Source of the DNA: an uncultured Eubacteriales bacterium
GTDB lineage: Bacteria; Acidobacteriota; Aminicenantia; Aminicenantales; UBA4085
Reading direction: 5' to 3'
Assembly: GCA_964537875.1 (NCBI GenBank)
Contig: CAZIDN010000007.1
Location: 6,720 to 70,719, forward strand
Length of the DNA stretch: 64,000 nt
Part shown: positions 38,765-62,267 of the stretch, one piece after another
Layout of the letters: each line of letters starts with the position of its first letter
Numbering within the stretch: the first letter of the stretch is position 1
The notes under the pieces: generated by a model
What the model saw: the letters and a program-made list of their open reading frames with translations, nothing else
The model's database searches: none
Told to the model about the DNA's origin: nothing
Made by a program: the position numbers and the translations under genes

Positions 38765-39862
38765 TTATTCTTTTATCCCTTCCCGTATTTTGTTGAACTC
38801 ATCTTTGAGTTCAACAAAGGCCTTGACGATCTCCGGGTCGAAGTGCGTCCCGCTCGAGGCAAGAACGATCTTCGTGCTCTCTTCATGAGAAAAAGCGGGT
38901 TTATAACAGCGCTTCGCCCTCAAGGTCTCATAGACGTCTGCCACCGCCATGATGCGCCCGGCCAGCGGGATCGCCTCGCCCGCCAAACCCTGGGGATAGC
39001 CGCTGCCGTTCCACTTCTCATGATGAGATCCGGCGATGGTGATTCCCATGTCGAGAAGGGCATTTCCCGGGTATTTCCGCCGGACGGCCTCCAGAGTATC
39101 AGCCCCGAGCCTGGCGTGGGTCTTCATCACTTCGAATTCTTCAGGCGTCAGCTTGCCGGGCTTGAGGAGAATGTGATCCGGGATGGCGACTTTGCCGATA
39201 TCGTGCATAGGACTCGCATGAAAAATGTTCTCGACAAAGGCTTCATCAATCTGTCCGCTCCAGCGGGAGCGCTGTTTCAGCTTGGCGGCCAGCCGTTTGC
39301 AAAAAACCTGGACTCGTTCCAGATGCATTCCGGTATCATCATCGCGAGATTCTGCCAACTTGGCCAGGGCAAATATCATGGCCAGCTGCGTGTCTGAAAT
39401 TTGCTTCACCTGGGCTTGAACAAGCTTCTCCAATTCGAGGTTATGCATCTCGAGCTCTTTTTGAAGGCATCGGAGCTTCAGGTGTGTTTCCACGCGAGCC
39501 TGGACTTCCTCAAACTGAAAGGGCTTGGAGATGTAGTCAACTCCGCCGACGGAGAACGCCCTGACTTTGTCCAGGATTTCGTTAAGAGCGCTGATAAAGA
39601 TGACGGGGATTTCCTTCAGCTGTCCGTCCGCTTTCAGGCGTTCACAGACTTCGTAGCCGTTCATCTCCGGCATGTTGATGTCGAGCAGGATCAGGTCCGG
39701 CGGGTCGCTCCGGGCCGCTTGAAGGGCCAGAATTCCGCTGGGAACCGGCCTCGTTTTATACCCTCGTTCCTTCAGCATATTCGCCAACAGCTGGAGGTTG
39801 GCCGGGGTATCATCCACGATAAGGACATTCGGCTCAGGTGGATGGGCGATGGATGATTTCAT
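38765..39862 (-). CDS. Response regulator with receiver and HD-GYP (c-di-GMP phosphodiesterase) domains
   Basis: The receiver carries VLIVDD...DLILLDINMP. The HD-GYP domain carries HASPMHDIGK and HHEKWNGSGYP. Confidence 0.8.
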   Translation of the reverse strand: MKSSIAHPPEPNVLIVDDTPANLQLLANMLKERGYKTRPVPSGILALQAARSDPPDLILLDINMPEMNGYEVCERLKADGQLKEIPVIFISALNEILDKVRAFSVGGVDYISKPFQFEEVQARVETHLKLRCLQKELEMHNLELEKLVQAQVKQISDTQLAMIFALAKLAESRDDDTGMHLERVQVFCKRLAAKLKQRSRWSGQIDEAFVENIFHASPMHDIGKVAIPDHILLKPGKLTPEEFEVMKTHARLGADTLEAVRRKYPGNALLDMGITIAGSHHEKWNGSGYPQGLAGEAIPLAGRIMAVADVYETLRAKRCYKPAFSHEESTKIVLASSGTHFDPEIVKAFVELKDEFNKIREGIKE

Positions 39863-42800
39863 CGGGCGTTTCTTCTTGTCTGTAAAAGCTCAAGGAGTTC
39901 CGAGTATTCAAAACGTTCGATAAGACTTCGCAGTTCCTGGGCGACAAGGATGTTGTGGTCCTCGACGCCGCCGGCCAACTCCATCATTAGGTCGAAGTCC
40001 GCGTTGGTAACGGCGTCCCGCATCTTATTGATGGACTCCTCCGGCAGAACCGACAAAATTTCTGCCGTCATTGCGCTCATCACCGCGGCGCCGGGCAGCA
40101 GTTTTGCGAGCCCAGCCTCATCGGAAAAAACGTACGCAACCCCCAGGAGCTTTCCGATCGTCTCGTAAAGCACCGCTTCCCGAAAAGGCTTGGCAATAAA
40201 ATCGTCGGCGCCGGCCCGGAGGGCTTCCTGGCGGTTCTGGGAAAACGCGCTGGCCGATATACTCACGATCTTGACGTCCCGGCCGCCGGCGCCGGCCCTG
40301 ATAAGGCGGATGGCGTCGTAGCCGTCCATCACGGGCATGCGCATGTCCATGAGGATCAGGTGCGGCTGCCAGGCCGTGAACTCCTCGACGGCTTCTTGGC
40401 CGTTGGTCACCTGCCGTGTCTCGAACCCGATATTGCCGAGCATCTGGGAAATGAGCGTCAGGTTCGTGTCCTCGTCATCGGCAATCAGGATTCGGTACGT
40501 CGGCTGTCCCGGCCGGAGGCCTTTCACCCGAGCCGATTCCGGCTTTTTCTTGTCTGAGCCAGCCTCGCACTCTCCCAGATGAACATCGAACTTGATTAAG
40601 CTCCCAGTCCCGTCCTTGCTGTCGACCGTGATGTCCCCTTCCATCAGGCGGACAAATTCCTTGCTGATCGCCAGGCCCAAACCCGTGCCCGATCCAGCCC
40701 GGCGGCTATTCTGCGTTTGCTGGAAAGGCTTAAACAGGTTATTCAGTTCCGTTTCCGGAATGCCCACTCCCGTGTCTTCCACTTCCGCTTGCAAACGAAG
40801 TCTGTTCGAACTCTCCTGATTCATATGCACTCTCAGAACGATGCCGCCCTTTTCGGTGAACTTTACGGCGTTCCCGAGCAGGTTGATGAAGACCTGGCGG
40901 AGTTTGCCCTCATCCCCCACGACATAATCAGGTATATGACTTAGGCCCTCCACGGCAAAATCCAGCTTTTTCGCATCCGTACGCACGCGAAACATCATCT
41001 CCAGATCCTCGAGCAGCGCCCGGAGGTCGAATGTCGTGGCGTTGAGAGTCGTCCGGCCGGCTTCTATTTTCGACATTTCCAGCACATCGTTAATGAGCGC
41101 CAGCAGGTGCTCGCCGCTCCGGTTGATGGTGTCAAGATGCTTTCGTTGCTGGGGATTCAGCGTATCATCTTGCCCCATCAGCTGGGAAAATCCAAGGATG
41201 GCGTTCAGCGGCGTCCGAATCTCATGCGACATATTGGCCAGGAAGATACTCTTGGCCCGGTTGGCCGCATCGGCGTCCTGCTTCGCCCCTTCGAGCTCTT
41301 TGGTTCGCTCCTTGACAAGTTCCTCGAGGTGCTCCCGGTGCTTGCTCAGCTCTTCCTCCCCCCGCTTGCGCTCGGTGATGTCGCTGAGAAAATTCAATGT
41401 CGCGGGTTTGTCTTCCCAGGCGACCAAGACCGCATCGATCTCCACCCACTTGATGCTCCCGTCTTTGTTAATCAACCTGAACGCATATCTGGGCAGAGAC
41501 ACATCGCCCTTGAGGCGTCTCAAATAATGCTCGCCCACCATCTGCCGGTCATCCGGATGAACGAACTCGAGAAAAGGCGAGGAACGCAGTTCTTGCTCCG
41601 AATAACCGGATATCTCACTCGCCATACGATTGACGAACTTCAGCATGCCGTCTTGGGCGATGAGGATGGCTTCGGCGGCGTTTTCCACCAGAGTCCGATA
41701 TTTCTCTTCGCTCTCTTGCAGCGCTTCTTCGGCCCGCTTGCGCTCGGTGATGTCTTCAATGGTTCCATCGAAATATTGGATGCTTCCGTGCTCATCTTTG
41801 ACGGCAACCGCCGATAGGGAATAAATGAACGGTTTCCCGTCCTTTTTCTCGACGTGTACTTCCTCATTTCTGATAAATCCTTTGGTGAGCAGCTTTTCGA
41901 TGAGTCTTTCTCTGTCCTCTACGTTTTGGTATAAATCGGAGAGGTTTAAGGCCAGGAATGCCTTTCTATTCTTATAGCCGAACATCCTGACCAGGGCGGG
42001 ATTGGCCTCCATAAATCGGTTTTTGGGTCCTGCCGTGTTTCTAAAGACGCCGACGTTGATGTTTTCCGTCAAAGTCCGATACTTCTCCTCATTTTCCTTC
42101 AACGCCTGTTCGCCTTTCTTGCGCTCCGTGATGTCTCTGGCGATTCCCAGGACGACCGCTTTTCCCTCTAATCTTACGGGGTGGGTGCTGATTTCAACCG
42201 CGACCTTGCTGCCGTCTTTTCTTTTCAAAATAAATTCATCGGGCCCGGTCGGCTTGCCTCTTAGGTTTTTGACTAAAAGATAAGCGGCTTTCGGAATAAG
42301 CTCCGCAGAAAGCAGGTTCAGCTTCAAAAAGCTCATTCCGACGAGCTCCTCCCTCTTATAGCCCGTCAGTTTCTCCGCGGCCTTATTGCCGTCAATAAAA
42401 TGGCCTTTCAGGTCGTTCAAATAGTAGGCGTCGGGAGCAGATTCGAACACAAGTCTGAACCGCTCTTCCGACCTTTTGAGATCTTCCTCCGCCCGCTTGC
42501 GTTCGGTGGTGTCGCGGAAGAATCCAACGAGATACGGCCTGCCGGCAATGGCAACCGTGGTTGCGTTGATGTCCGCGTAGAAAATGGTTCCGTCCTTCCT
42601 GAGGCAGGGAAGATCCGTGGCTAGCGTTTTCTCTCCCCGTATCTGGGCTTCGAACTCGGCCGCAACGTGCGACAAAGCATCTTTCGGGTGAATGTTCGAA
42701 ACGCCTAGAATTCTCAATTCGTCCTCGGTATATCCGAGCATTCGACACATAGCCGGGTTCGCGTACTGGAAACCTTTCGTTTCATTGTCGGCGATCAGGA

Positions 42801-44898
42801 TGCCATCGGCGTTGTGTTCAAAAAGCGCGTGGTATCTTGCTTCAGAATCCCGCAGCGTCTCCTCCGCCCGCTTGTGCTCGGTGAAGTCTTCCCCTGAGCA
42901 AAGGATGCCCATGAAGTTCCCGGCTTCATCTTTCAAAGGAATATTGTGCCAGGCGATGATTCTCTCCTCCCCTCGTTGAGTGAGAACCGGATTTTCATAG
43001 TATTCAAGAGGCTCGACTTCTCCGGCCGCCAACCTTTTGAAAACATGTTGTACCTCATTCTTGATTCGTGCCGGTAAGAAGGTCTCGCACCAGTTCTTTC
43101 CGATGATCTCATGCTCCGGATAGCCGAGAATTTCGCATCCTTTTTTATTGATTAGGGTAACCGTGGCCGATGAATCCAAAATGACGATCATCACGCCTGC
43201 GATATCCAGATATCTTTGGGCCTTATCCTTCTCCTTACCCAGCTCTTTTCTCTTCTGCTTCTCGTCGATGATGTGGGCAATATAGCTGGCGATAGCCTGA
43301 AGGACTGAGACATCGTCTTCAGAGAAGGCGTTGACCTGCGTCGCCTGAAGGTCGAGAACGCCGATGAGCTGATCTTGGACAACCAGGGGAATGATCAACT
43401 CCGCTTTTGTCTCCGTGAGGTGAAAAGCGATATAGTCCGGCTCTTTGAAAACGTCGTTGGCGACGATCGTTTGTTTCAAGTGCCCCGCCTTGCCGATCAG
43501 CCCTTGTCCCAGCTTCTGTCTATGGCCCCTGGGGATAAGAAGGCCCGATTTGTTCCAGCCGGTCAGATATTCGATTTCCTCCGTTTCCGGATCATAAAGG
43601 TTCACGGAAATCTTGTAATATCCGAAGGACTTCCCGATGCTTTCGGCTGCCTGGACGATCACCGTTTCAATATCGGTATTCACCGGAATTTCGCTTTGAA
43701 TATGATGAATCAGCTCGAGCTGGATGTTGCGCTTTTGAAGGGCCTCTTCGGCCTGTCTCCGGTCGGTCATATCCCACATGTAGGAGCGAGTCCCGACAAG
43801 CCGTCCGTCTTCTCTCAAATCAACGACATCCACCTCAAGATATCGGACGGATCCATCTTTCTTGATGCCTCTGAATTCATATTTCGATGGGACATTTTTA
43901 TTTCGAAGACGTTCTTCATGATAGGTCACGACCTTTTCTCTGTCCTCAGGATGGACGAGTGATTGGACAGGCTGTTTTAGCATCTCCTCCATAGAATATC
44001 CAAAAATTTCCGCGTACCTTTCATTGAAATATTTGAGATTCCCTTGGCTGTCATCGCTTGATATAGCGATCCGGGATTTTTCGACTAAATCCCTAAAATG
44101 TTCTTCTGATTTTTTTAAGGCCTCCTCCGCCCGCCTGCGCTCGGTAATGTCTCTTGTAACTGCGACAAAGCCTTTCAGCTCTCCTTCGATACCACAAACC
44201 AGGGCGGAACTGAGTTCACCGATAAATCGGGTTCCGTCTTTCTTAAGCAGGGTATATTGTGCGTCTTTTAGAATGCCGTCTTTCATAGTTATCTGAAGAT
44301 TTTTCTTCGCCCGTTCGCGATCCTCCGGAGAAATGAGCTCAAGAGCGTTTTGCCCGATGAGCTCTTGGGGACTTTTAAAACCGTGGAGCTCGAGAGTTCG
44401 GGGGGAAACGTAGGTAATCCTGCCCTCCATATCCGTTGCCGTGACCGCTTCCGGAGAGGTTTCGATCATCATTCGAAACCATTGTTCGGACTTGAGAATA
44501 TGTCGTTCTGTTTTTTTGCGTTCAATGGCGTAGCTGATCGACGTCGCCAGCCGGCTGGTGTTGAGTTGCTCTTTGACAAGATAATCCTGTGCCCCTCTTT
44601 TTATGGCATCGAGAGCAACCGTTTCATCGGCGAGACCAGTCAGCACGATAATCGGAACCTCTTGTTTCTGAGCATTGACCTTGATGAACGTCTCAAGTCC
44701 CCGGCTGTCGGGCAACCCGAGATCCAAGAGGATGACGTTATGCAAGGTCTCTTCGATTTTCTCCAAGCCCTCCTTGAGGCAGGAGGCAGTTTCAAGATCA
44801 AACAGGCTGATGTCCACTTCCTTAAACATTTCGCGAATGAGGAGGATATCCCCCGGGTTATCCTCGATCATCAGCACCTTGATCTGTTTGTCGGTCAT
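39859..44898 (-). CDS. Multi-sensor hybrid histidine kinase (N-terminal receiver, about 7 PAS/PAC, GAF, HisKA-HATPase, two C-terminal receivers)
   Basis: Receiver motifs occur at the N-terminus and twice at the C-terminus (ILIADDEDTNL...; ...DMRMPVMDG). Repeated PAS signatures are present (RDITERKRAEE x6-7). The H-box SHEIRTPLNAI and the N/G boxes are present. It overlaps the downstream RR gene by 4 nt. Confidence 0.85.
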   Translation of the reverse strand: MTDKQIKVLMIEDNPGDILLIREMFKEVDISLFDLETASCLKEGLEKIEETLHNVILLDLGLPDSRGLETFIKVNAQKQEVPIIVLTGLADETVALDAIKRGAQDYLVKEQLNTSRLATSISYAIERKKTERHILKSEQWFRMMIETSPEAVTATDMEGRITYVSPRTLELHGFKSPQELIGQNALELISPEDRERAKKNLQITMKDGILKDAQYTLLKKDGTRFIGELSSALVCGIEGELKGFVAVTRDITERRRAEEALKKSEEHFRDLVEKSRIAISSDDSQGNLKYFNERYAEIFGYSMEEMLKQPVQSLVHPEDREKVVTYHEERLRNKNVPSKYEFRGIKKDGSVRYLEVDVVDLREDGRLVGTRSYMWDMTDRRQAEEALQKRNIQLELIHHIQSEIPVNTDIETVIVQAAESIGKSFGYYKISVNLYDPETEEIEYLTGWNKSGLLIPRGHRQKLGQGLIGKAGHLKQTIVANDVFKEPDYIAFHLTETKAELIIPLVVQDQLIGVLDLQATQVNAFSEDDVSVLQAIASYIAHIIDEKQKRKELGKEKDKAQRYLDIAGVMIVILDSSATVTLINKKGCEILGYPEHEIIGKNWCETFLPARIKNEVQHVFKRLAAGEVEPLEYYENPVLTQRGEERIIAWHNIPLKDEAGNFMGILCSGEDFTEHKRAEETLRDSEARYHALFEHNADGILIADNETKGFQYANPAMCRMLGYTEDELRILGVSNIHPKDALSHVAAEFEAQIRGEKTLATDLPCLRKDGTIFYADINATTVAIAGRPYLVGFFRDTTERKRAEEDLKRSEERFRLVFESAPDAYYLNDLKGHFIDGNKAAEKLTGYKREELVGMSFLKLNLLSAELIPKAAYLLVKNLRGKPTGPDEFILKRKDGSKVAVEISTHPVRLEGKAVVLGIARDITERKKGEQALKENEEKYRTLTENINVGVFRNTAGPKNRFMEANPALVRMFGYKNRKAFLALNLSDLYQNVEDRERLIEKLLTKGFIRNEEVHVEKKDGKPFIYSLSAVAVKDEHGSIQYFDGTIEDITERKRAEEALQESEEKYRTLVENAAEAILIAQDGMLKFVNRMASEISGYSEQELRSSPFLEFVHPDDRQMVGEHYLRRLKGDVSLPRYAFRLINKDGSIKWVEIDAVLVAWEDKPATLNFLSDITERKRGEEELSKHREHLEELVKERTKELEGAKQDADAANRAKSIFLANMSHEIRTPLNAILGFSQLMGQDDTLNPQQRKHLDTINRSGEHLLALINDVLEMSKIEAGRTTLNATTFDLRALLEDLEMMFRVRTDAKKLDFAVEGLSHIPDYVVGDEGKLRQVFINLLGNAVKFTEKGGIVLRVHMNQESSNRLRLQAEVEDTGVGIPETELNNLFKPFQQTQNSRRAGSGTGLGLAISKEFVRLMEGDITVDSKDGTGSLIKFDVHLGECEAGSDKKKPESARVKGLRPGQPTYRILIADDEDTNLTLISQMLGNIGFETRQVTNGQEAVEEFTAWQPHLILMDMRMPVMDGYDAIRLIRAGAGGRDVKIVSISASAFSQNRQEALRAGADDFIAKPFREAVLYETIGKLLGVAYVFSDEAGLAKLLPGAAVMSAMTAEILSVLPEESINKMRDAVTNADFDLMMELAGGVEDHNILVAQELRSLIERFEYSELLELLQTRRNAR

Positions 44899-45327: not shown

Positions 45328-45789
45328 TCACTTGCTTCCGTCCGGCGGCAGCTTGACCACAGTCAGCCAGAAGTCCTCGATGGATTTCACGACCTTGATG
45401 AATTGATTCAGGTCAATGGGCTTTGTGATAAAACAGTTCGCATTGAGGTTGTACGTCTTCAGGACGTCTTCCTCATCCTTAGAAACCGTCAAGATAACCA
45501 CTGGGATTCGCTTCAGGTCGGGGTCTCCTTTGATCTCTGCCAGAACCTCCCGGCCGTCTTTTCCGGGAAGGTTGAGGTCCAGCAGGATGAGGTCGGGCCG
45601 CTGCACTCGAGCATGCTTACCCTCTTTCCGGAGAAAATCCATCGCCTCCTGGCCGTTATCCACCAGATGCAGAGTGTTGCGGACTTTGGCGTCCTGGAAA
45701 ACTTCCCAGGCCAGCCGGGCATCCCCCGGGTTGTCCTCAACCAATAAGATTTCGATGGGATGGACCGCGATTTCGGAAACCATAATCAT
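45328..45789 (-). CDS. Single-domain response regulator (CheY-like)
   Basis: [10 protein letters not shown]...[14 protein letters not shown]...K receiver motifs are present. Confidence 0.75.
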
Positions 45790-47003
45790 TCCCTCCTTTT
45801 TGGTATTGTGAAAAAGAAAGTGGAGCCATTGCCGGGCTCTGATTCCACCCAGATCCGCCCGCCATGCCTTTCCACAATCTTCTTGCAGATGGCCAGCCCG
45901 ATGCCCGTTCCCGGATACTCTTCTCTGCTGTGCAGACGCTGGAAGATGACGAAAATTCGGTCGAAATATTCTTTGGCTATGCCTATGCCGTTATCCCGGA
46001 CTCCAAACATCCATTCTTCCTCCCTCGACTCAGAAAAGACATGGATCCGGGGCGGCTCCTTTCCCCTGAATTTTATGGCATTTCCGATCAGGTTCTGGAA
46101 TAGATGGAGCATCTGGGAAGCATCGGCAGTGATCTCAGGCAAGGATTCATGGGTTAGAAGAGCCTGGTTCTCCTCTATTAAAAGAAGAAGGTTGACGTGA
46201 ACGTGGGCCAGGATCTCTTCGCTGTTGACAGGCTCGAAAGGCATGCCGCGGGTGGAAAGGCGGGAGTAGGATAAAAGGTCATTGATCATGTGCTGCATGC
46301 GGTTGGCGCCATCCACGGCAAACTCGATGAATTCATCGGCGCTCTTGTCGAGTTTTCCTTTATAGCGCTGCTCCAAGAGCTGGGTGAAGCTGGAGATCAT
46401 TCTCAGCGGCTCCTGAAGGTCATGAGAGGCGACATAAGCGAACTGTTCAAGATCTCTGTTGGAACGTTCCAGTTCCCTGTTCAGGGCGGAGAGTTGAACG
46501 ACCCGGCTCTCAAGGTCCTTATTTAATCTTATGATCTCTTCCTCAGCCTTTTTGAGGGCGGTGATGTCCTGCTGGGCCATAAGTAAGACTCGCTGTCCGC
46601 CTAATTCTATCTGGTCGATGTTGAGGAGAGCATAAAAAGCTGTCCCGTCCTTTCTCTTCATCCTGACTGTGTAATCCCGGACTTTGCCTGTTTCCTCCAG
46701 GATTTTGAGCATCTCCCTGCGATCGTTGGCATCCGCGTAAGTTTCCCCAACATTGATTGTCTTGAATTCCTCTTGCGAATAGCCTGTCATCTCCTCCACC
46801 ATCCGGTTTATAGAATAGACATTCCCCTTCAGGTCTAATATCCCTATGCCTACGGGCACCGCCTCAACCAGCTTGGGCAATTTCTCCTCAGATTCACGGA
46901 GCGCCTCTTTCACCCGCTTGAGCTCGGTGAGACGTGAATCCGCGCCGGCAAGTGACGGAGGGTTTTTCGATTTCTTTTTTTTGATATTAGCTTTTCCTTC
47001 CAT
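45786..47003 (-). CDS. PAS-domain sensor histidine kinase
   Basis: PAS signatures, the H-box SHDLQEPLR and HATPase N/G boxes ([14 protein letters not shown]) are present. It overlaps the receiver gene by 4 nt. Confidence 0.75.
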
Positions 47004-47290: not shown

Positions 47291-48400
47291 TTATTTGTCC
47301 TTCCACACTTTCCCGTCCTGGCTGATGTACCAGGCCTCGCCGGATTTGCCACGGTAAATGGCCTCAAACAGGCTTGTCGTGGTCTGGATGACGGGCGGAA
47401 AGACAAAATCGTCGACTTTGAGGTCTTTTTCTTTGAGCCCGAGAGCTCCCAGGTCTGGGGAAAAATTTCCTTTTTCGGCTTTGAAGGCCCACTCTTTATA
47501 GTAGATTTTCCGTAGAGCCCATTTAGCTGCTTCCTCAGGCTTGTCCTGGAACGAATCTTTTCCCCGGCCGGCGGTCTTCCCGGAGAACTGGACATAGCCC
47601 CACATCTCGGGATAATGGATGTTGATCAAGCCCATGGGCGACCAGACCCAGTTGTCTTCGGCAAAAGGCTTTCCCGTCGCCGGATCCTTGGCTTTGACAT
47701 ATTGCCCGTTCTCGACGTTTATGCGATATTCCACCCGGGAAAAGTTGACGCGCCATTGATCTCCCGGCTTGGGCAATGACTTCGCCGCGGCGGCTTCTTT
47801 GAGGACCTCCCAAGGCATGGCGATCTCGACAAACCAGCCTTTGTCCTTGTCGCCGGGATTGTTGACTGTCCCGTTGACCTTGACCGCCGTCTGGAGTCCC
47901 TGGATATCCCAGGCATGGATCGCAGGCCCCCCATCCCGGTAGGGCCTGACCAGGAAAAGATCCCAGACCGTATTCAGGGCATTGATCTCGAGCTCGTAGT
48001 AGTTGTGGGTATCGCCGTCGGGATCGATGAAGACCTCGAAATCATTGTCTTGGTAAATGATCGAATCGCGCTTGGTCAGCGTGGCCCAGACATCGGGCTC
48101 CTCGAGAAAGGCTCCGAAGTAAAAATAATCATTGTCCCAGAGCATTTTGACCATCGTTCGGTGCCGCGGCTTAGAACGGAGCGAGCCTTCGATATCCACA
48201 AAATTGTCCGACCAGGGGACCTTGGACCAGACCTCTTCATCCAAATTGCCGTCGACTTGGACCGGCCCGGCCGCCCTGTAACAAATAGATTTTTTGGGAT
48301 TAAAGGCAATCTTCGGCTCGGGAACCTTGGTTCCGTCCGAAAACCCTAGGATGATCGCAAGAAAACAAGCAGAAACAAGAAAAAAAATCCGCGATTTCAT
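47291..48400 (-). CDS. Secreted CBM9-like / DOMON-like carbohydrate-binding family protein
   Basis: A signal peptide is present. Aromatic-rich WSD...DNDYFYF...FEVFIDPDGDTHNYYE motifs resemble CBM9-like domains. The assignment is by pattern only. Confidence 0.4.
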   Translation of the reverse strand: MKSRIFFLVSACFLAIILGFSDGTKVPEPKIAFNPKKSICYRAAGPVQVDGNLDEEVWSKVPWSDNFVDIEGSLRSKPRHRTMVKMLWDNDYFYFGAFLEEPDVWATLTKRDSIIYQDNDFEVFIDPDGDTHNYYELEINALNTVWDLFLVRPYRDGGPAIHAWDIQGLQTAVKVNGTVNNPGDKDKGWFVEIAMPWEVLKEAAAAKSLPKPGDQWRVNFSRVEYRINVENGQYVKAKDPATGKPFAEDNWVWSPMGLINIHYPEMWGYVQFSGKTAGRGKDSFQDKPEEAAKWALRKIYYKEWAFKAEKGNFSPDLGALGLKEKDLKVDDFVFPPVIQTTTSLFEAIYRGKSGEAWYISQDGKVWKDK

Positions 48401-48609
48401 CGTTCTCTCCTATGCCCGTTTTCCCTTATTTCTAGTTTTCCGAGGTGTGAGGGCAAACATTCTATTTACCTCCTTTAATGTCCAAGGAGAAAGGAAGTTT
48501 AATAATTTTCGTTCTGCTCCATTTTATTCGGAAAACATAGTGAGGAAACGATCCGGATTGTTTCGCCTTTCTGTTCTCACGAAATGTGAGAGACTCATTT
48601 CTTCTTACC

Positions 48610-49770
48610 TTATCTTCCTTTCAATACTTCGCCAAGGGCCTTCCAGTGCTCATCCGTCATCGAGCTCATGGCGAACAGGGTGATTCCTCGCGCTCCGCCC
48701 TTGAAGGATCCCTCAACCGCTCGAGAAAGCTCCGCGGGCTTGATCTGAGAGATAAAAAGGCCGCTGTAAAGAGGACGCGACGAAGGCAGCTCGGCGACGC
48801 CCTCCCGTGTGGCCGGCTCCAGCCAATCCAAATCCTTGGCGTAATAATAATGATAGATCATCGGATGGACTGTATCGAGCCTCCACTTCGGCCAGTCTTG
48901 GCGGACGTAGCGGCGGGAGAGCTCCGGCGTGGCAAAGACCGCCGCCGAAATCGGCTTTCCTTTTCTGTGGGCCGCATCGGCCAGCTTGTCGACGATGTTG
49001 GTAATCGTCTGATAACGGTAGTTCTTCCAGGCTTGATGAGAGGAAGGATCCTCGATTCTAAGCGGGTCGATGCCTTCGATCTCTTCGAAATTCTTGCGGC
49101 AGACAGGACAATAACAGAAATCGAACTGGGGATACTCTTTATCCTGGACGAGATTGTACTTGGGCTGCAGGGCTTCCGGCAGAATCACGTCCGGGTAGCG
49201 GATATAATCGAGGTGGATGCCCTTGATCCCTTCAATATCCGCCAGTTCCCGCACGAAATTTTCCAGGTATTCATAAACTTCGGGGCGCGAAGGACAGAGC
49301 CATTTGTAAGAAGGGATATATGGCTGTTTGGCCAGCGTCGAATCGCCGCTGCGGCTGACAACGAACCAGTCGGGATGATCTTTCTCGACGGCCGCGGCAT
49401 TGCAGATCAGGGCGCAGATCCAGGCGTGGACTTCGAGACCGGCTTGCTTGGCCGCGGGCAAAATCTTGGCCAATTCATCGACCTCATGGACGGCAAAAGA
49501 GCTTGGATAAAAGGCCTTGGCCCCGGTATAGCTCAGAAGATGGACCGCCTGGATCCCCGCCCCGGCCGCTTGGTCGAATTTTCTTTTCCATGACTCGGCC
49601 GAAATTTTCGGGTCAGGATGAGCCCACATCCAGTTCTTAATCTCATTTTTCGGCGCCTTTTCAAGCGGCTGCGCCTCTTTCGTGAATAGATGAGTCCCGG
49701 CGATCGTTAAGGCGCCCGCTCCCAAGCCGGCCAAAAATTCCCGTCTTTTCATACGACCTCGTTCATTCAA
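48610..49770 (-). CDS. Glycoside-hydrolase-like family 10 (GHL10/DUF187) TIM-barrel protein, TAT-secreted
   Basis: A twin-arginine signal (RREFLAGLGAGAL) is present. The VHAWI and HLDYIRYP motifs fit GHL10. Confidence 0.45.
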   Translation of the reverse strand: MNERGRMKRREFLAGLGAGALTIAGTHLFTKEAQPLEKAPKNEIKNWMWAHPDPKISAESWKRKFDQAAGAGIQAVHLLSYTGAKAFYPSSFAVHEVDELAKILPAAKQAGLEVHAWICALICNAAAVEKDHPDWFVVSRSGDSTLAKQPYIPSYKWLCPSRPEVYEYLENFVRELADIEGIKGIHLDYIRYPDVILPEALQPKYNLVQDKEYPQFDFCYCPVCRKNFEEIEGIDPLRIEDPSSHQAWKNYRYQTITNIVDKLADAAHRKGKPISAAVFATPELSRRYVRQDWPKWRLDTVHPMIYHYYYAKDLDWLEPATREGVAELPSSRPLYSGLFISQIKPAELSRAVEGSFKGGARGITLFAMSSMTDEHWKALGEVLKGR

Positions 49771-49973: not shown

Positions 49974-52900
49974 CTAGAATCCCGGATAGAAGCTGAATTG
50001 CCAGTAGCCGCTCTTACTGTAGAGGGGACGGTCGAACGGCCAGACATAGTTGACGCCGAGCACGAGATACCCCAGGAGGTTGACTCTCAGGCCGAAACCC
50101 GCGCTGGAAATGGGCTTCTGGATTCCATGCGGCGAAAGGATCGGCAAGCGCGGACTGTTGGTGGAATCCCAGGCGACTCCGACATCATAGAAGGCCAGGA
50201 AATCCACGGGGAAGATCCCGTAAAATCCCTTGCCGATTCCCAGGGCCCCGAACAGCGGAAAACGCAGTTCAAAATTGGCGACCATCATCCGGCTTCCCCA
50301 CAGCCTGTTGAAATCGAAAGTATCTTTGGTTTCGGGATCGACTTCCTGCGCGGTAAAGGACCCGTAGTTGTAGCCCCGCACGAGAGTATCGTATCCGAGA
50401 AACATCGGATACAGCCTCTGATCATCAGAGCCCTTTCCATAGCGTCCATAAGTCATGACACGGAAGGCCAAGGTGAACGGCTTGACGGGCATTAAATACC
50501 GCCTGTAATCCCCCAACAAGGAATAAAATTTGAGCGATCCGACGGTAGGCGAAGCCTCGAGTCTGTAGCTCTGGCCCAGAATCGGGGCTGTCGCGCCGAA
50601 GAAGGCGCTGTCATAGACCAAGGCGGCGGAGGCATAGGCCATGGCCAGGCCCGGAGGGGACGGCAGCTTGGTTTTTTCATCCAAGATGAGGGTGTTGTCG
50701 TACATGGAGTAAGCGCGGGTGTAGACGACATTGTTAAAATCAATGTAATTTAGTCCAGCCGACAATTCAAACCGTTGCATCTGACTGAAAGGATAGGAAG
50801 CAAAGCCTCCGATCTGATAATAGATCTGTCGATAAAGAACTTCCTCTTCGATATAGGCCGGCTCATTGAAGACATAGTCTGTGTAGACGTTATAGCCGCC
50901 ATAAACATAGGGGATGCGATAGGCAATGGCCCCCCAATTCAGGCGATTCCTCGAGTTCACGTACTGGGCGAGGAAAGAGGAATCTTCCAGCCGGTTGTAG
51001 ACCTGGACCATCGTGGCCAGGTTATGGAAGCCGAGCATGTCGCTCCAGAACAGGGTGATCCCGCCGCCCCCGTAGGTGCCGTAGCGGTCGACGCCGACTC
51101 CCATCTGGGGCGGCGTGGCAAAGTCCAGGGACAGCTTGGGCTTGTACTGGCTGAAGCCGAATTTGGTTGCATCCGGAAGCCCGAACCAGGGATTCTTGAG
51201 CAGTCCGAGAATCTCGGATCCGGATCGCTCTTTGGGAGGCAGCACGGCCGGAGAGTATTGCCCTGCCGGGACCTCCACGGCTTTGCCCGCCAGCAAATCA
51301 TGAGGTTCGATGGTGTAGATGCTGAAATTTCCGTCGTCATAGACGCTATACAGCAGGTCATTCGTTTTCGCTGCGATCGACAGGGCCGGGCTGAGCTGGG
51401 TTATCCCGCTGACCCCGGTATAGAGGTTGGTGACCTCGGTTACATTTCCGGATTCGATGGCCAGCCTGTACACGTTGGGAATGCCGTTTTGGTCGGAGAT
51501 AAAGTGGAGACTCTTGGAATCCGATGACCATTGGGGATTGACGCTTTTTGCGGCATCAAATGTTTTCAGCTCCTTGATCTCGCCCGATTCAGGATCCATC
51601 AAGGCCAGACGGAAACCGCCCATATTCAACACATCCATCTTCGTCGTGAATCGTTCGGTCACGAAGGCGATCGTGCGTCCGTCCGGCGACCAGACGGGAT
51701 GAATATCTCCGTAGGGATCCCCCGTCATATTCTTCAGTTTCTTCGTTTCCAGGTCATAGATATAGAGATCGGTATAGCCGCCGGCCAATCCCGAGAAGGC
51801 GATCTTTTTGCCGTCCGGTGACCAGGTCGGGTTGAGGATCTCGCCGAGTTCGGGGAACTTGATTTCCTCGCTGATCTTCTGACCTTCGACATCGAGAAGG
51901 GCCAGCACCGGCTTGCCGGCGCTCACCGCCCCGAAGACAAACTGTTTGCCCGTCATGTCCCAGGAGCCGGCGGAATTGATAAACTGGATGCTCTGGAAAT
52001 GGGGATCTACAGACGTCCGGGTGATTCTTCTGGTCGTTTTTCCCGTCTTTGCGTCTCCGATGAACATATCGAGTGAGAACAAGTCTCTCGAAGAAATGTA
52101 GACAAACTTCTTGCCGTCCGGGCTGAGCACGGGAGCGACATTATACGGGTCGTATTCAGAGCCTTTGACCAGCAGCCGTCCCGTCGCCGTCGGGGGCTGG
52201 GTTGTCTGCTGGTAGGGGCTGTAATCTTTCTTCAGGGCGGCCTGCCAGTCTTCGGACAATTTTTTCAAGTTGATGCCGAGCGCCCTTTCCATGGCCTTCT
52301 CGTAGTCGGCGCCCCGGACGATGTCTTTCATCACTTTAACCACGACCAGGTCGCCCCAACGGCCGCCGATATACGCCCAGACCGCCTGGCCGTAGCGGTA
52401 GGGAAAATAGCGATAAGGATCCCTGAGGTCTTTGATCGTGGGCATCTTCTTTTTCTTGATCACATCCCGCATCCACATCGCCGTGTTCGAGTCCACGGGA
52501 CCGATCGAAAGATATTCGGCCATCCCCTCGACGACCCAGAGGGGCGCCCGTTCCAAGCCGCCCATGCTCTGTCCGGAATACTGTTGAGCCGGCCCGGCCG
52601 CCATATCGTACTGGAAGGCATGGACCAGCTCGTGGCCGATGACATGGTCTGTTTCTTCGAGCGAGGCGCCGAAGGGCAGGATGATGCGCCGCTTCATGGA
52701 TTCCGTGACGCCGCCCGTCCCTTCGCCGATGATATCGGACAGGACCGTGGTCTGCTCAAACTGAGGGTGGCTGGCGTACATAATCAGGGCCTGGCGGCCG
52801 CGCAGTTCGTAATTGAAGAGCCGGGCGTATCTCTTGTACCAGCGCTCGGCCATCCGGGCGCCCACCTTGGTAGCCTGTTCTTCCTCCGGATAAAAATAGA

Positions 52901-53072
52901 CGTCGAAATGCTCGGTCTTTAAAACTCTATAATCAAATTTCTCGTATTGGACCTTGTTCCGGCCGAAGTACTGCCCGAACACGGGCTGTAGGGTCAACAC
53001 CAGGCCTAAACACAGGGCAGCCAAGAAAAAAACCGTCTTCCGAGGGCGTTTTAACATTATCCTTGAAATCAT
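49974..53072 (-). CDS. Fusion outer-membrane protein: N-terminal HExxH metallopeptidase-like domain, PD40/TolB beta-propeller, and C-terminal Omp85/BamA-type beta-barrel
   Basis: A signal peptide (MISRIMLKRPRKTVFFLAALCLGLVL) at the ATG 53072 is preferred over the tracked start. The HELVHAFQYD motif is present. Repeated SPDGKKIAF blades are present. The C-terminus (...FELRFPLF...GFGLRVNLLGYLVLGVNYVWPF...FSFYPGF) resembles the PF01103 barrel. Confidence 0.5.
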   Translation of the reverse strand: MISRIMLKRPRKTVFFLAALCLGLVLTLQPVFGQYFGRNKVQYEKFDYRVLKTEHFDVYFYPEEEQATKVGARMAERWYKRYARLFNYELRGRQALIMYASHPQFEQTTVLSDIIGEGTGGVTESMKRRIILPFGASLEETDHVIGHELVHAFQYDMAAGPAQQYSGQSMGGLERAPLWVVEGMAEYLSIGPVDSNTAMWMRDVIKKKKMPTIKDLRDPYRYFPYRYGQAVWAYIGGRWGDLVVVKVMKDIVRGADYEKAMERALGINLKKLSEDWQAALKKDYSPYQQTTQPPTATGRLLVKGSEYDPYNVAPVLSPDGKKFVYISSRDLFSLDMFIGDAKTGKTTRRITRTSVDPHFQSIQFINSAGSWDMTGKQFVFGAVSAGKPVLALLDVEGQKISEEIKFPELGEILNPTWSPDGKKIAFSGLAGGYTDLYIYDLETKKLKNMTGDPYGDIHPVWSPDGRTIAFVTERFTTKMDVLNMGGFRLALMDPESGEIKELKTFDAAKSVNPQWSSDSKSLHFISDQNGIPNVYRLAIESGNVTEVTNLYTGVSGITQLSPALSIAAKTNDLLYSVYDDGNFSIYTIEPHDLLAGKAVEVPAGQYSPAVLPPKERSGSEILGLLKNPWFGLPDATKFGFSQYKPKLSLDFATPPQMGVGVDRYGTYGGGGITLFWSDMLGFHNLATMVQVYNRLEDSSFLAQYVNSRNRLNWGAIAYRIPYVYGGYNVYTDYVFNEPAYIEEEVLYRQIYYQIGGFASYPFSQMQRFELSAGLNYIDFNNVVYTRAYSMYDNTLILDEKTKLPSPPGLAMAYASAALVYDSAFFGATAPILGQSYRLEASPTVGSLKFYSLLGDYRRYLMPVKPFTLAFRVMTYGRYGKGSDDQRLYPMFLGYDTLVRGYNYGSFTAQEVDPETKDTFDFNRLWGSRMMVANFELRFPLFGALGIGKGFYGIFPVDFLAFYDVGVAWDSTNSPRLPILSPHGIQKPISSAGFGLRVNLLGYLVLGVNYVWPFDRPLYSKSGYWQFSFYPGF

Positions 53073-53432
53073 GGTCAGGTCTCCTTTCCGCGGCTTGCCG
53101 CCCGGAGGGGCAGCCGCAGGTTTAAATATAGGTAATCCTATAGGATTTGTCAATTCTAAGGTGGAGCACAAATCTTTCATCCTGGTCTCTTGCCTCTCTT
53201 GTATACAAAAAACGTGCCAAGTCAGCCTTCCTGAACGAAGAAAAAGGGAAGGCCCAGACTGTCCTTTGTTGGTGACAACTGACTGTCCTCAAGGTCATTG
53301 CTTGCATATCTTAACCCATAAATTAGACAATTCAAAATCAACTTTTCTTGGCACGGCCATCCCCTTCTAATCATTAAAGATATGAGGTGATGCGGGCCAA
53401 ATTCCGCAGATTGCGGAAGACAGCCCCGGAAT

Positions 53433-56087
53433 TCATCGAATCTCGATCTTTGCGGTCAGGACCTGGTCAGGCCATTCGGCCGCCTGCCCCTTGAAGCCGG
53501 GCTGGATTCCTCCGACGGACACCTCAAACACCCCCGGTTCGACAGCCCTCTTAAGATCCTTGCCAATCAGCGAAAATTGTTCGGGCCTCAGGCTGAATCT
53601 GACGGTTTTCTTTTCTCCGGGGTTCAAGAAAACCCTCTCAAAACCCTGCAGCGCCTTTAGAGGAACCGGAACGGAAGCTACGACATCCGTGAGGTAAAGT
53701 TGGACGACCTCCTCACCCGCCTTGGCTCCTATGTTCTGGACGTCCACGGCGACAGTCACGTCGCGATCGGCCGTTACGATTTCGGGGACCGCAAGATTCG
53801 AATACTCGAATTTCGTGAAGCTCAGCCCGAAGCCGAACGGATAAAGCGGCCGGCCTTGGAAATAGCGGTAGGTGCGTCCTTTCATCGCATAATCCTTAAA
53901 AGGAGGGAGGTCGTTCACGGACCTATAAAATGTGACCGGCAGCCGGCCGCCCGGATTATAGTCGCCGAACAAAACGTCGGCGACGGCATACCCGGCTGCC
54001 TGGCCGGGGTACCAGGCTTCGATGATAGCGGGGATGTTCTCGCTGGCCCAGTTGACCGCCACGGCGCTGCCATTCAGAAGGACCAGGACGACCGGCTTGC
54101 CGAGCCCGGCGACCGACTTCATGAGGTCCTCCTGGACGGCCGGCAGGTCAAGGGTGAGCCTGTCCCCGCCCGCAAACCCCTCTACGGGCACATCCATCTC
54201 TTCTCCCTCGAGCCGCGGGGACAGGCCCATGGCCAAGATCACGACATCCGCTTTCCCGGCTTTTTCCAGGGCCTCTTTCTTGTGATCGATGCCGGGCAGC
54301 CTCCATAAAAGCCTGATCTGGGCGTCGCCCGCCCGCTCAAAAAATTCAACCTTGATCTTGTAGCGCTTGCCGCCGAGGAGGTCCACAGGCTTATAGGTTT
54401 TTCGAGGATGATGCGTCCCCTCAAAACTGACAAGAAGCTTTTCGTCGAGAAAAATCCGGAATCCGTTGAACCCTTCGGCGCCGAGCATGTAGATCCCGGA
54501 CACCGGCGGGACGATCTCCCCTGTCCAGCGCACGCCGAAATTGTCCGGGTCAAAATTTGGGTCCGGCGCTCCGTCCCACCAGTTGAAATCGAGCCTCTTG
54601 TCGATACGCATGAACACCGGCTCTCCCTGAAAATCACGGTTATTGAAATATTCGCCCTTCAGGCCGTTCACCGGTTTGCCGGCATCAGAGGTGAGGAAAG
54701 CCGTGGCCGGCACGACTTCCAGGACCGGCATATTCGCCGCCCATTCGCAGCCCAGAGCGTAAAGGACTTTCGTCTCAGGACCGACCTTGTCGATGATTCC
54801 CTGCAAAAGCGTTTCCGGATTGGACGGTGTCCCGTTATAGTTGCCGAGCAGGACTTCCACATCGGCGGCGTTCGGCCCGATAACCGCGATCGTCTTCAAA
54901 GCCCTGGACAAAGGGAGAATTTCCTTATCGTTCTTTAAAAGAACGATCGATTTTCTGGCGGCTTCGAGGGCCAGGATCCTATGCGACTTGCTGTCGACGA
55001 CCGAATAGGGGATCTTCGCGTAGGGCACCATCTCCGGCGGGTCGAACATGCCCAGCTTGAAGCGCGCCCGGAAAAGCCTTTTGACGGAAACGTCGATCTC
55101 TTTCTCTGTGATCCACCCTTTCTTGACGGCCTCCATCAGATTCTTGTACTCGTGGCCGCAGCTGAGATCGCATCCGGATTTCACGGCCAGCGCCGCCGCT
55201 TCGGCCGAAGTTGCGACGATCTTGTGTCCCGCGGTGATATCGGTGATGGCGCCGCAGTCAGAAACGACATATCCGCTGAAACCCCATTCATTGCGCAGGA
55301 TGGACGTCAGCAGACGGGAGCTGCCGCAGCATGCTTCGCCCATGTATCTGTTGTAAGCGCACATCACGGAAAACGCCTTGGCTTCCATGATGCAGGCCTG
55401 GAAATGAGGCAGATAGGACTCGAGGAAGTCCCGCTCGTCCGTGACGGCGTCGAAGGAATGACGGTCTGTCTCGGGCCCGCTGTGGACGACATAATGCTTG
55501 GGCGTTGCGACGACCTTCAAATAACGCGGATCCTGGCCTTGCAGACCCTGGATGAAGGCCACGCCGAAGCGGCCGGTCAAATACGGATCTTCTCCGTACG
55601 TCTCCATCCCCCGGCCCCAGCGCGGGTCGCGGAACAGGTTGATGTTCGGCGACCAGAATGTGAGACCCTGGTAGATCCCGCGCAGGCCCCTCCGGACGAA
55701 CTCGTGGTGTTTGGCCCTGGCTTCGTCCGAAATTGCCGTCGCCACCCTTTGCATGAGATCGGTATCCCAAGTTGCGGCCAGCCCGATGGCTTGGGGAAAA
55801 ACTGTGGCCAGGCCCGCCCGCGCCACGCCGTGCAAGCCTTCGTTCCACCAGTCATATTTTGGAATGTCGAGCCTGTCGACGGCGGCCGCATCGTTCATCA
55901 TCTGGGAGACTTTTTCCTCAAGCGTCATCCGCGAGACCAAATCATAGAGCCGTTTTTCAAGGGGGAGTCCGGGGTCTTTATAAGCCGGCCCAGGACTCAT
56001 CTTTTTCGCGCACCGGCTGCCGCCAACGACAAAGAAAACAGCGATCAAAAGAGGGGAGAAAAGTTTCCAATGACGGCGCACGTCCAT
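53433..56087 (-). CDS. GH3 beta-glucosidase/beta-xylosidase-type enzyme with PA14 insertion, secreted
   Basis: A signal peptide is present. The GH3 nucleophile motif GFSGYVVSDCGAI is present. A PA14-like segment and a C-terminal Fn3-like domain are present. Total length is 884 aa. Confidence 0.8.
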   Translation of the reverse strand: MDVRRHWKLFSPLLIAVFFVVGGSRCAKKMSPGPAYKDPGLPLEKRLYDLVSRMTLEEKVSQMMNDAAAVDRLDIPKYDWWNEGLHGVARAGLATVFPQAIGLAATWDTDLMQRVATAISDEARAKHHEFVRRGLRGIYQGLTFWSPNINLFRDPRWGRGMETYGEDPYLTGRFGVAFIQGLQGQDPRYLKVVATPKHYVVHSGPETDRHSFDAVTDERDFLESYLPHFQACIMEAKAFSVMCAYNRYMGEACCGSSRLLTSILRNEWGFSGYVVSDCGAITDITAGHKIVATSAEAAALAVKSGCDLSCGHEYKNLMEAVKKGWITEKEIDVSVKRLFRARFKLGMFDPPEMVPYAKIPYSVVDSKSHRILALEAARKSIVLLKNDKEILPLSRALKTIAVIGPNAADVEVLLGNYNGTPSNPETLLQGIIDKVGPETKVLYALGCEWAANMPVLEVVPATAFLTSDAGKPVNGLKGEYFNNRDFQGEPVFMRIDKRLDFNWWDGAPDPNFDPDNFGVRWTGEIVPPVSGIYMLGAEGFNGFRIFLDEKLLVSFEGTHHPRKTYKPVDLLGGKRYKIKVEFFERAGDAQIRLLWRLPGIDHKKEALEKAGKADVVILAMGLSPRLEGEEMDVPVEGFAGGDRLTLDLPAVQEDLMKSVAGLGKPVVLVLLNGSAVAVNWASENIPAIIEAWYPGQAAGYAVADVLFGDYNPGGRLPVTFYRSVNDLPPFKDYAMKGRTYRYFQGRPLYPFGFGLSFTKFEYSNLAVPEIVTADRDVTVAVDVQNIGAKAGEEVVQLYLTDVVASVPVPLKALQGFERVFLNPGEKKTVRFSLRPEQFSLIGKDLKRAVEPGVFEVSVGGIQPGFKGQAAEWPDQVLTAKIEIR

Positions 56088-61876: not shown

Positions 61877-61949
61877 TAATACTTGTTATTAAGGGCGTGA
61901 TTTTCCGACGGTTCCTATGATCACAGCCGAGGCGAATTTCAAGCCGGTC

Positions 61950-62216
61950 TCAATCCTCGACTTTTTCGACGATGATCGTCAATTTGGAAACAAGGGCGGC
62001 GATGGCCCCGACGGCGGCCACGACCGGCGCCAAAGCGGCTCCGACGATGCCTACCGTGAGCGGGATCTCCAGGAACGTCTTTCCTTCCTCATTCTTGAGG
62101 ATGATCCGGCGGATATTCCCCTGGTGGATAAGCTCCTTGAACTTGTTGAGGATCTCGCCGCCGGCGAGCTTGAACTCTTCGGTCCTTGTCTTTCCCGTCT
62201 TTTTTTCTTCGACCAT
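61950..62216 (-). CDS. DUF4342-like small protein
   Basis: An 88-aa protein with the pattern ...FKELIHQGNIRRIILKNEEGKTFLEIPLTVGIVGAALAPVVAAVGAIAAL... Confidence 0.35.
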   Translation of the reverse strand: MVEEKKTGKTRTEEFKLAGGEILNKFKELIHQGNIRRIILKNEEGKTFLEIPLTVGIVGAALAPVVAAVGAIAALVSKLTIIVEKVED

Positions 62217-62267
62217 GATTTTCTCCTCTATTTCAAGATACGTATTTTGCCGCCGCTTTGTTCAAAT

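Follow-up and report, generated by a model that had tools for sequence, protein, structure and literature searches.

A (V/I)RG(Y/F) motif in loop L6 defines the Omp85 family. POTRA domains are typical of the Omp85 superfamily; they are absent from its noNterm, Metallo, and WD40-like subfamilies and from the protein analyzed here. The WD40-like Omp85 subfamily was defined by Heinz & Lithgow in 2014 (Front Microbiol 5:370, PMC4104836), with H1XQ58, D0MEQ5, and L0G1A4 among the UniProt members listed. The main text of that study treats the propeller alone, and the peptidase domain is confined to a supplementary table (Table S3), which gives TolB, BamA, and aminopeptidase matches and has a column “best aminopeptidase hit”; the conserved active site and the N-terminal motif considered below are not described there. 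The subfamily is also mentioned in PMC11358297 and PMC11116518, the latter of which names its members as uncharacterized and an open target. Our search of the literature for a functional study of WD40-like Omp85 members found none.

A related design is that of PlpD, a patatin-like Omp85 protein (former “type Vd”), in which an N-terminal enzyme is likewise fused to a 16-stranded Omp85 barrel. The patatin domain of PlpD was shown experimentally to be exclusively periplasmic (Hanson et al. 2024, PMC11116518). PlpD consists of a patatin phospholipase domain, one POTRA domain, and the barrel, and forms homodimers, whereas the protein considered here combines a zinc-peptidase–like domain with a propeller and has no POTRA domain.

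The gene and its subfamily

The gene lies in a 64,000-nucleotide stretch of DNA, the whole of which is referred to as the window. Its features are as follows:

53125..53153, minus strand: sigma-70–like promoter candidate TTGACA-17-TATATT (11/12 matches), within the 1068-aa ORF call
53081..53086, minus strand: Shine-Dalgarno sequence AAGGAG, 8 nt 5′ of the ATG at 53072, read directly from the sequence
49974..53072, minus strand: CDS of a WD40-like (PD40) Omp85 family protein, 1032 aa plus stop codon
52974..53072, minus strand: Sec signal peptide–like segment MISRIMLKRPRKTVFFLAALCLGLVLTLQPVFG (aa 1-33), read from the sequence, with an inferred cleavage site
52944..52973, minus strand: motif QYFGRNKVQY at the mature N terminus (aa 34-43), more highly conserved in the family than any other stretch, predicted to be disordered
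52182..52940, minus strand: gluzincin (clan MA) zinc-peptidase–like domain (aa 45-297)
52620..52634, minus strand: HELVH zinc-binding/catalytic motif (H147, E148, H151); HExxH is present in 64/64 distant homologs
52515..52541, minus strand: LWVVEGMAE (aa 178-186), a W-x-x-E-G-x-A-x-Y motif resembling the M1 “NEGFA” motif
51309..52181, minus strand: six-bladed PD40/TolB-like beta-propeller (aa 298-588)
51081..51308, minus strand: linker of about 75 aa (aa 589-664) with conserved motifs AVLPP, GLP, and YKPKLxLDY and no POTRA domain
49977..51080, minus strand: 16-stranded Omp85-type beta-barrel (aa 665-1032), ending ...FYPGF
50370..50381, minus strand: VRGY motif (aa 898-901), the Omp85 L6 hallmark, in the loop that joins strands 11 and 12 (position from the model)
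50178..50192, minus strand: FYDVG (aa 961-965), the Omp85 (F/G)xDxG hallmark, on strand 13 (aa 956-968 in the model)

The ORF call on the minus strand extends over 49974..53180, a reading frame of 1068 aa. This longer frame, starting at 53180, was dropped. Since the promoter-like site falls inside the longer ORF call, the start at 53072 is favored, and the Shine-Dalgarno sequence and homologs of 1032 to 1033 aa, which cover 100% of the 53072-start product, also speak for it. The sequence-only reading had thus made the better choice in starting the protein at 53072. The strings that it quoted are found in the product: HELVHAFQYD at aa 147-156 and FELRFPLF, VNYVWPF, and FSFYPGF toward the C terminus.

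Domain searches confirmed the three-part architecture proposed in that reading, i.e., an HExxH domain, a PD40 propeller, and an Omp85 barrel, and we assign the protein to its family and describe its anatomy with high confidence. The architecture is already known as the WD40-like Omp85 subfamily of 2014, and the window gene is an ordinary member of it. The protein is equated with this subfamily on the grounds that architecture and structural neighbors are identical and that the taxa overlap. An aminopeptidase-like N-terminal domain, a TolB-like PD40 propeller, and an Omp85 barrel follow each other in the same order without POTRA domains; the structural neighbors (TolB 2w8b/2ivz; BamA/TamA; F3, ERAP1, APA, 4fgm, and ColT) are the same; and Calditrichia, Bacteroidota, and the Chlorobi/Ignavibacteria group are among the overlapping taxa. 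There is no structural difference, and the window copy comes from Aminicenantes, which were hardly sampled in 2014.

The architecture had been taken for an uncommon one, which is not borne out by its distribution. At E ≤ 1e-30, the N-terminal domain alone retrieved 874 clusters at 50% identity, made up, with few exceptions, of proteins of ~1000 aa, and relatives are encoded by at least 582 species genomes. They come from at least six bacterial phyla, the range including Aminicenantes, other Acidobacteriota, Gemmatimonadota, Bacteroidota, Ignavibacteria, and Calditrichia. Database names of family members are inconsistent: “Tol biopolymer transport system component,” BamA/TamA, “peptidase S9,” and “DPP IV N-terminal domain” are all in use.

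In search of a conserved operon or partner genes, ORFs were called in 80 related loci and in the window and clustered by all-against-all BLASTP. No conserved neighbor was found among these 81 loci: the top family occurred in only 11 of them, at inconsistent positions, and the remaining families (ABC ATPase, oxidoreductase, DUF2207-like, and beta-lactamase–like proteins) represent lineage-specific synteny. In the window, the neighbors are glycosidases and peptidases, and the gene is not in a tol-pal operon. Because no gene neighbor is conserved, the nearby peptidases do not constitute a functional cluster; the tricorn and M48 genes, which had been counted toward a “specialised” protein-degradation capacity, are located more than 20 kb from the gene, and that proposal is not supported.

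Peptidase-like domain, propeller, and barrel

Residues 1 to 33 look like a Sec signal peptide, and the protein is accordingly read as a Sec-exported outer-membrane protein. The cut would fall between ...PVFG and QYFG, as judged from the sequence. Among distant homologs, no segment is less conserved than the signal peptide (19% identity to the query). The QYFGRNKVQY stretch that follows it shows 84% identity in 63 distant homologs, compared to 43% for the peptidase domain, with G37 and N39 being invariant. Despite this top conservation, its pLDDT in the model is below 50.

For the sequence-only reading, membership of the HExxH region in a noncatalytic family would have been a refutation. The N-terminal domain was found to have a thermolysin-like catalytic fold of the gluzincin type (clan MA), with strict conservation of the residues that bind metal. 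Across 64 full-length homologs that share 32 to 56% identity, H147, E148, H151, E182, G183, E186, and Y225 do not vary, and the putative active site HExxH...E...Y is, judging from this alignment, under purifying selection. According to the model and the alignment, HELVH is located on helix 138-159 and E182 on helix 178-190, within the motif WxxEGxAEY. By analogy with family M1, we infer that E182 is a candidate third zinc ligand. The spacing between HExxH and this Glu is 30 residues, as opposed to 18 to 25 in classic gluzincin families.

The N-terminal domain stays below the threshold of every Pfam peptidase model. Peptidase_MA_2 (PF13485) matches it with 28.1 bits, under the 32.4-bit gathering cutoff, and distant family members with 16 to 32 bits. 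The domain is best treated as a separate family inside clan MA. Its identity to the gluzincins of clan MA(E), namely, M30 (lugdulysin/hyicolysin), M9 collagenases, M1 aminopeptidases, and M61, is 11 to 17%. The GxMEN exopeptidase motif of M1 aminopeptidases was not found upstream of HExxH; a GEGTGGVTE loop, in which G121 is invariant and T123 and E124 are at least 90% conserved, sits at a comparable position. M1 models of Pfam or NCBIfam did not match, and the window protein lacks the domains that flank the catalytic one in M1 enzymes on the N- and C-terminal sides. A search of the sequences of solved structures with the N-terminal domain yielded no more than weak TolB matches (E ≥ 0.7), located at the propeller end.

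The propeller gave a PD40 match of 81.6 bits in the Pfam domain search; the Pfam matches in this part of the protein are to the propeller-type models PD40 and DPPIV_N, and the full-family profile retrieved propeller proteins only from among solved structures. TolB-propeller and BamA-barrel models matched only partially. An identity with TolB of the Tol-Pal system was rejected: TIGR02800 scored 113.7 bits against a cutoff of 343, over profile positions 198-299 only, the TolB N-terminal domain is missing, and the gene lies outside any tol-pal operon. An S9 serine peptidase was also rejected, as there was no Peptidase_S9 (alpha/beta-hydrolase) match and propeller-type models alone were hit. The S9 prolyl oligopeptidase/DPP-IV family and tricorn share with the window protein a PD40-type propeller adjoining a peptidase domain, but their catalytic domain is an alpha/beta-hydrolase or an S41 serine peptidase, while here it is metallopeptidase-like.

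POTRA-like folds, which the sequence-only reading proposed to look for in the linker, were found neither in Pfam scans nor in the model. No POTRA family matched the whole protein at E ≤ 1, aa 585-700 of the query and of eight distant homologs gave zero Pfam matches at E ≤ 10, and the linker in the model contains short elements only, with no beta-alpha-alpha-beta-beta unit of ~75 aa. Residues L611, P613, G631, L632, P633, Y643, and D650 of the linker are invariant (alignment A1), a pattern more in keeping with a structured interface than with a loose tether.

The assignment of the C terminus to an Omp85-type barrel was upheld. Omp85 (PF01103) matches aa 829-1027 with 35.6 bits against a gathering score of 24 bits, VRGY and FxDxG are both present, and the model predicts a 16-stranded barrel, as had been anticipated. 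VRGY is located in a 49-aa loop; its R899 and G900, as well as F961, D963, and G965 of the second hallmark, are at least 90% conserved in distant homologs. Since 11 strands precede the VRGY loop and 5 follow it, the loop is expected to be extracellular and strand 1 to start in the periplasm. The AlphaFold model of the three-domain 1032-aa chain has a pTM of 0.75, which suggests that the domains are fixed relative to one another; pLDDT is 46 to 49 at aa 660-669 and at the C terminus, i.e., at the seam between strands 1 and 16. Structurally, the barrel is nearer to BamA, Sam50, and TamA than to TpsB; the barrel alone had no match among the sequences of solved structures. The protein is not a BamA ortholog, because TIGR03303 scores 33.3 bits against a cutoff of 297; BamA is, moreover, characterized by five POTRA domains, and none is present. 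Unlike the BamA/TamA/Sam50 insertases, the window protein lacks both POTRA domains and conserved accessory-protein genes.

Possible function and alternative explanations

The best overall explanation, which we favor with moderate confidence, is that the protein is a WD40-like Omp85 member in which the barrel tethers a periplasmic peptidase-propeller. Because strand 1 of the Omp85 barrel starts in the periplasm and PlpD has its enzyme domain there, the peptidase-propeller module (~630 aa) is most likely periplasmic. Held by the barrel under the outer membrane and facing the periplasm, this module would work as a metallopeptidase tethered to the membrane. By analogy with S9 peptidases and tricorn, extended polypeptides or peptides would be bound or gated as substrates by the propeller; alternatively, the propeller may serve for binding in the way that TolB does with Pal and with disordered peptides. 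The module would most plausibly process envelope proteins, or control their quality, at the outer membrane's inner face, with the degradation of imported oligopeptides as the second choice. For this periplasmic-peptidase mechanism, we see about an even chance. The sub-gathering Peptidase_MA_2 match, the 30-residue spacing, and the lack of a conserved operon partner count against the explanation; it also gives no reason why an Omp85 barrel should be used when a lipid anchor or a simple barrel might do, and it does not account for the invariant N-terminal peptide.

Alternatively, the barrel itself could be active, inserting or translocating clients that the peptidase trims or destroys, with the propeller in place of BamB/POTRA docking; the idea of a “BamA-BamB fusion” comes from Heinz & Lithgow (PMC4104836). 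BamA-like and BepA-like roles would then be united in a single polypeptide. Both VRGY and FxDxG matter for function in BamA and FhaC, and the family keeps them throughout, though barrel stability alone would also keep them. The best matches of the barrel are BamA, Sam50, and TamA; however, every characterized insertase has at least one POTRA domain, and there is none here. The low pLDDT at the seam might suit a labile lateral gate but is weak evidence, and a conserved partner gene, e.g., an equivalent of BamD or TamB, is lacking. We consider an active machine of this kind unlikely.

A further extension, which we regard as rather improbable, is a self-contained outer-membrane proteolytic machine in which the lateral gate or pore hands clients to a propeller-gated zinc peptidase and QYFGRNKVQY is a regulatory or docking strand. 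The clients would be imported polypeptides or outer-membrane proteins that have stalled or misfolded, and one chain would do the work of BamA plus BepA. QYFGRNKVQY might pair with the barrel seam like the PlpD lid or might bind an inner-membrane partner as the N terminus of TolB binds TolA.

It is similarly doubtful that the barrel exports its own N-terminal peptidase-propeller, via the pore or beside it, in a type V–like manner, yielding a surface-displayed protease for extracellular protein feeding. TpsB transporters handle their substrate via POTRA domains. The window protein has no such domain, its barrel is more distant from TpsB than from the insertases, and the passenger of ~630 aa would include a rigid propeller. 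No neighboring peptidase genes are co-conserved with it. PlpD, the only enzyme-Omp85 fusion tested, keeps its enzyme domain periplasmic, and the passage of folded domains through an Omp85 pore has been argued to be energetically unfavorable (PMC11116518).

Last, a noncatalytic scaffold or TolB paralog, with the propeller tethering the outer membrane via Pal-like lipoproteins or peptidoglycan and the HExxH domain reduced to a degenerate binding module, appears very improbable: the strongest sequence match is indeed that of the propeller to TolB, and members are often labeled “Tol biopolymer transport system component” in public databases, but HExxH, E182, and Y225 are invariant in 64/64 homologs down to 32% identity, which is unexpected for a dead enzyme, and the TolB model covers part of the propeller only, in a protein lacking the TolB N-terminal domain and encoded outside a tol-pal operon.

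Implications for the subfamily

For the window, the main outcome is a correction: the protein is real and had been rightly dissected, but it belongs to a large, catalogued subfamily and not to a local protease cluster. This subfamily is one of the few Omp85 branches that have a fused enzyme and no POTRA domain. The strictly conserved zinc site and the highly conserved mature N-terminal peptide provide handles for a first functional study, for which cultivable members from Rhodothermus, Echinicola, and Myxococcus are possible subjects.

Gene start and domain anatomy

The features at the 5′ end of the gene are as follows.

Sequence features around the gene start
49974–53180 (−): longest open reading frame covering the gene
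53153–53125 (−): near-consensus promoter-like site, TTGACA-17-TATATT, inside the longer reading frame
8 nt upstream of the ATG at 53072 (−): Shine-Dalgarno sequence AAGGAG

The ATG at 53072, the start chosen in the sequence-only reading, is better than 53180 because of this Shine-Dalgarno sequence, the internal promoter-like site, and the end-to-end coverage of the resulting product by homologues of 1032 to 1033 amino acids in the protein search. Since the strong promoter-like site and the Shine-Dalgarno sequence for the ATG at 53072 both lie within 53073–53180 (−), translation probably does not cover the 36 codons at the start of the longest call. The same over-extension seems to affect P0001, a database protein of 1067 amino acids with 96% identity. 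With its own promoter-like site, the gene looks monocistronic. In its 1032-residue product, residues 1 to 33 are a typical Sec signal peptide, and the mature protein contains no cysteine.

Pfam searches returned PD40 (81.6 bits), Omp85 (PF01103; 35.6 bits against a cut-off of 24), and Peptidase_MA_2 (28.1 bits, slightly below the 32.4-bit cut-off). NCBIfam models for the TolB propeller and the BamA barrel matched in part, each far under its equivalog cut-off. An AlphaFold2 model built from 59 homologues (mean pLDDT of 82.4, pTM of 0.75) resolved the following parts.

Parts of the protein in the AlphaFold2 model
aa 45–297: alpha/beta peptidase-like domain
aa 298–588: propeller
aa 589–664: linker of short elements
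aa 665–1030: sixteen-strand barrel (eleven strands, a 49-residue loop, then five strands)
aa 898–901: VRGY, in the 49-residue barrel loop
aa 961–965: FYDVG, in barrel strand 13

The propeller has six PD40 repeats in the sequence and six four-strand blades by DSSP. Omp85 and TpsB barrels are marked by (V/I)RG(Y/F) in L6 and (F/G)xDxG in strand 13, and both barrel motifs are conserved in the family. Foldseek matches to TolB (E = 1.5e-10) and BamA (E = 5e-9) were in agreement. The strings on which the sequence-only reading had relied (HELVHAFQYD, FELRFPLF, VNYVWPF, and C-terminal FSFYPGF) are all found in the product; the peptidase-like/PD40/Omp85 architecture it proposed is real, and the barrel has the sixteen strands it anticipated together with both hallmark motifs. 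It had also raised the question of POTRA folds hidden in the linker. POTRA models gave no match to the whole protein at E ≤ 1 or to the linkers of the query and eight distant homologues at E ≤ 10, and the model contains no beta-alpha-alpha-beta-beta unit. The pTM of the model and invariant linker residues suggest that the three domains are held in a fixed arrangement.

Conserved elements of the N-terminal region

Conservation was assessed in 64 full-length homologues only 32 to 56% identical to the query. H147, E148, and H151 of the HELVH motif are among the residues that never vary, as are E182, G183, E186, and Y225. HExxH is present in all 64 proteins and is always followed downstream by W-x-x-E-G-(M/L)-(A/P)-E-Y. 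This appears to resemble the M1 aminopeptidase motif W-L-N-E-G-F-A-x-Y, which carries the third zinc ligand. Conservation of the zinc-site and motif residues speaks for a functional enzyme and against a degenerate module.

Two further conserved segments stand out.

Conserved segments of the N-terminal region
aa 34–43, 52944–52973 (−): QYFGRNKVQY, the ten-residue N terminus of the mature protein
aa 104–130, 52683–52763 (−): highly conserved loop PQFEQTT...GEGTGGVTESMKRR (the GEGTGGVTE...RR part)

The loop, in which F105, G121, and R129 are invariant, is poorly modeled (pLDDT < 50). It directly precedes the edge strand and the HExxH active-site helix, in the place occupied by the GxMEN exopeptidase motif in M1 enzymes, and may be a substrate-binding element that possibly decides specificity. 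No other segment of the family is as well conserved as QYFGRNKVQY (84% identity among distant homologues versus 43% for the peptidase domain; G37 and N39 invariant), which is disordered in both AlphaFold models (pLDDT < 50). Such strong conservation of a disordered terminal peptide suggests a docking or regulatory strand. The N terminus of TolB binds TolA. The lid of PlpD, a patatin-like phospholipase-Omp85 fusion, swaps strands with the barrel seam (PMC11116518). Either could, speculatively, be a parallel.

Distribution of the family and genomic context

The family is large and its architecture constant. The protein search yielded at least 8000 scored candidates, all at E ≤ 1e-5; the best 120 matches are 991 to 1067 amino acids long and 55 to 96% identical, with at least 97% query coverage. 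All 120 carry precomputed matches to PF26549 and PF26550, possibly more recent models of the propeller or of this family in particular. With the N-terminal domain alone (aa 1 to 345), an exhaustive HMMER search of 1.84 billion cluster representatives yielded 3675 clusters at E ≤ 1e-3, falling to 2175 at E ≤ 1e-10 and to 874 at E ≤ 1e-30. Almost all of the best 150 are either ~1000 to 1100 amino acids long or fragments truncated at contig ends; therefore, the domain seems essentially restricted to the three-part architecture. With one genome scanned per species, at least 582 loci were confirmed in Aminicenantes, Vicinamibacterales and other Acidobacteriota, Gemmatimonadota, Bacteroidota, Ignavibacteria, and Calditrichia. 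Given these 582 species loci and the 874 clusters at the strictest threshold, the earlier view of the architecture as uncommon does not hold. The closest locus among those listed (97% identity) is from an Aminicenantes metagenome-assembled genome (MAG) from Lake Pavin sediment. Several records of MAGs that encode this diderm outer-membrane protein (L009, L013, L014, L019, L022, L023, L026, and L031–L033) bear the title "uncultured Eubacteriales" or "Clostridiales"; since their nearest relatives are Aminicenantes, these names are probably placeholders or misassignments.

Genes in the window
24252–27614 (−): tricorn-type protease (PD40 propellers, Tricorn_C1, PDZ_Tricorn, S41)
28062–29804 (+): M48 peptidase fused to a TFIIB-type zinc ribbon
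38765–39862: HD-domain response regulator, following the hybrid kinase
39859–44898 (−): hybrid histidine kinase of 1679 aa (about seven PAS, GAF, HisKA/HATPase, two receiver domains)
45328–47003: second PAS kinase and receiver pair, preceding the hybrid kinase
48610–49770: GHL10-like glycosidase, immediate neighbor
53433–56087: GH3 beta-glucosidase with a PA14 insert, immediate neighbor
61917–63059 (+), 380 aa, and 62268–63512 (−), 414 aa: overlapping reading frames with no Pfam match, of which likely at most one is real

The other immediate neighbors encode a gamma-glutamyltranspeptidase, an S9 peptidase, and an Nramp transporter. The tricorn and M48 genes lie more than 20 kb from the gene, with unrelated genes between, and show no linkage to it in related genomes. 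When reading frames from 80 related loci and the window were clustered, even the most widespread neighbor family was confined to 11 of the 81 loci; recurring families reflect lineage-specific synteny only. The suggested specialized protein-degradation cluster is thus not borne out. Glycan-degrading genes are abundant (31688–37307, 47291–49770, and 53433–56087), encoding a GH38 alpha-mannosidase, a GH127 beta-L-arabinofuranosidase, a CBM9 protein, the GHL10-like hydrolase, and the GH3 enzyme. The window resembles a general polymer-degradation neighborhood more than a protease island.

Proposed topology and role

To our knowledge, strand 1 starts at the periplasmic face in every solved Omp85 protein. 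It would also do so here because of strand parity, as L6 is preceded by eleven strands and followed by five. In PlpD, the only enzyme-Omp85 fusion examined experimentally, the enzyme domain is periplasmic, contrary to the "type Vd secretion" model (PMC11116518). Because of this parity and precedent, we favor a zinc peptidase that would face the periplasm, tethered to the outer membrane by the barrel, with a propeller that would bind or gate extended substrates, by analogy with S9 peptidases, tricorn, and TolB. Its likely role would be processing or quality control of envelope proteins; alternatively, it would degrade imported peptides.

The protein is unlikely to be an active BamA-like machine carrying its own protease, a reading that overlaps with the favored one. 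Surface display of the peptidase-propeller module, which would run counter to the PlpD precedent, is less likely still. A non-catalytic TolB-like scaffold is highly improbable, given HExxH in 64 of 64 homologues and the invariant E182 and Y225.

Homologue names in public databases disagree (Tol biopolymer transport component, BamA/TamA family, peptidase S9, DPP IV N-terminal domain, PD40 domain). Heinz and Lithgow defined ten Omp85/TpsB subfamilies in 2014, including a "WD40-like" one in which a TolB-like propeller replaces the POTRA domains (PMC4104836). A 2024 paper on this subfamily notes "divergent WD40 and peptidase domains" (PMC11358297), and Hanson et al. (2024) place it among those that "have not been well characterized" (PMC11116518); our literature search found no functional study of it. 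The protein is a further member of this known, widespread, and experimentally untouched subfamily, and its architecture is not novel. The locus itself is of modest interest; the family would be of more, if its topology and activity were tested.
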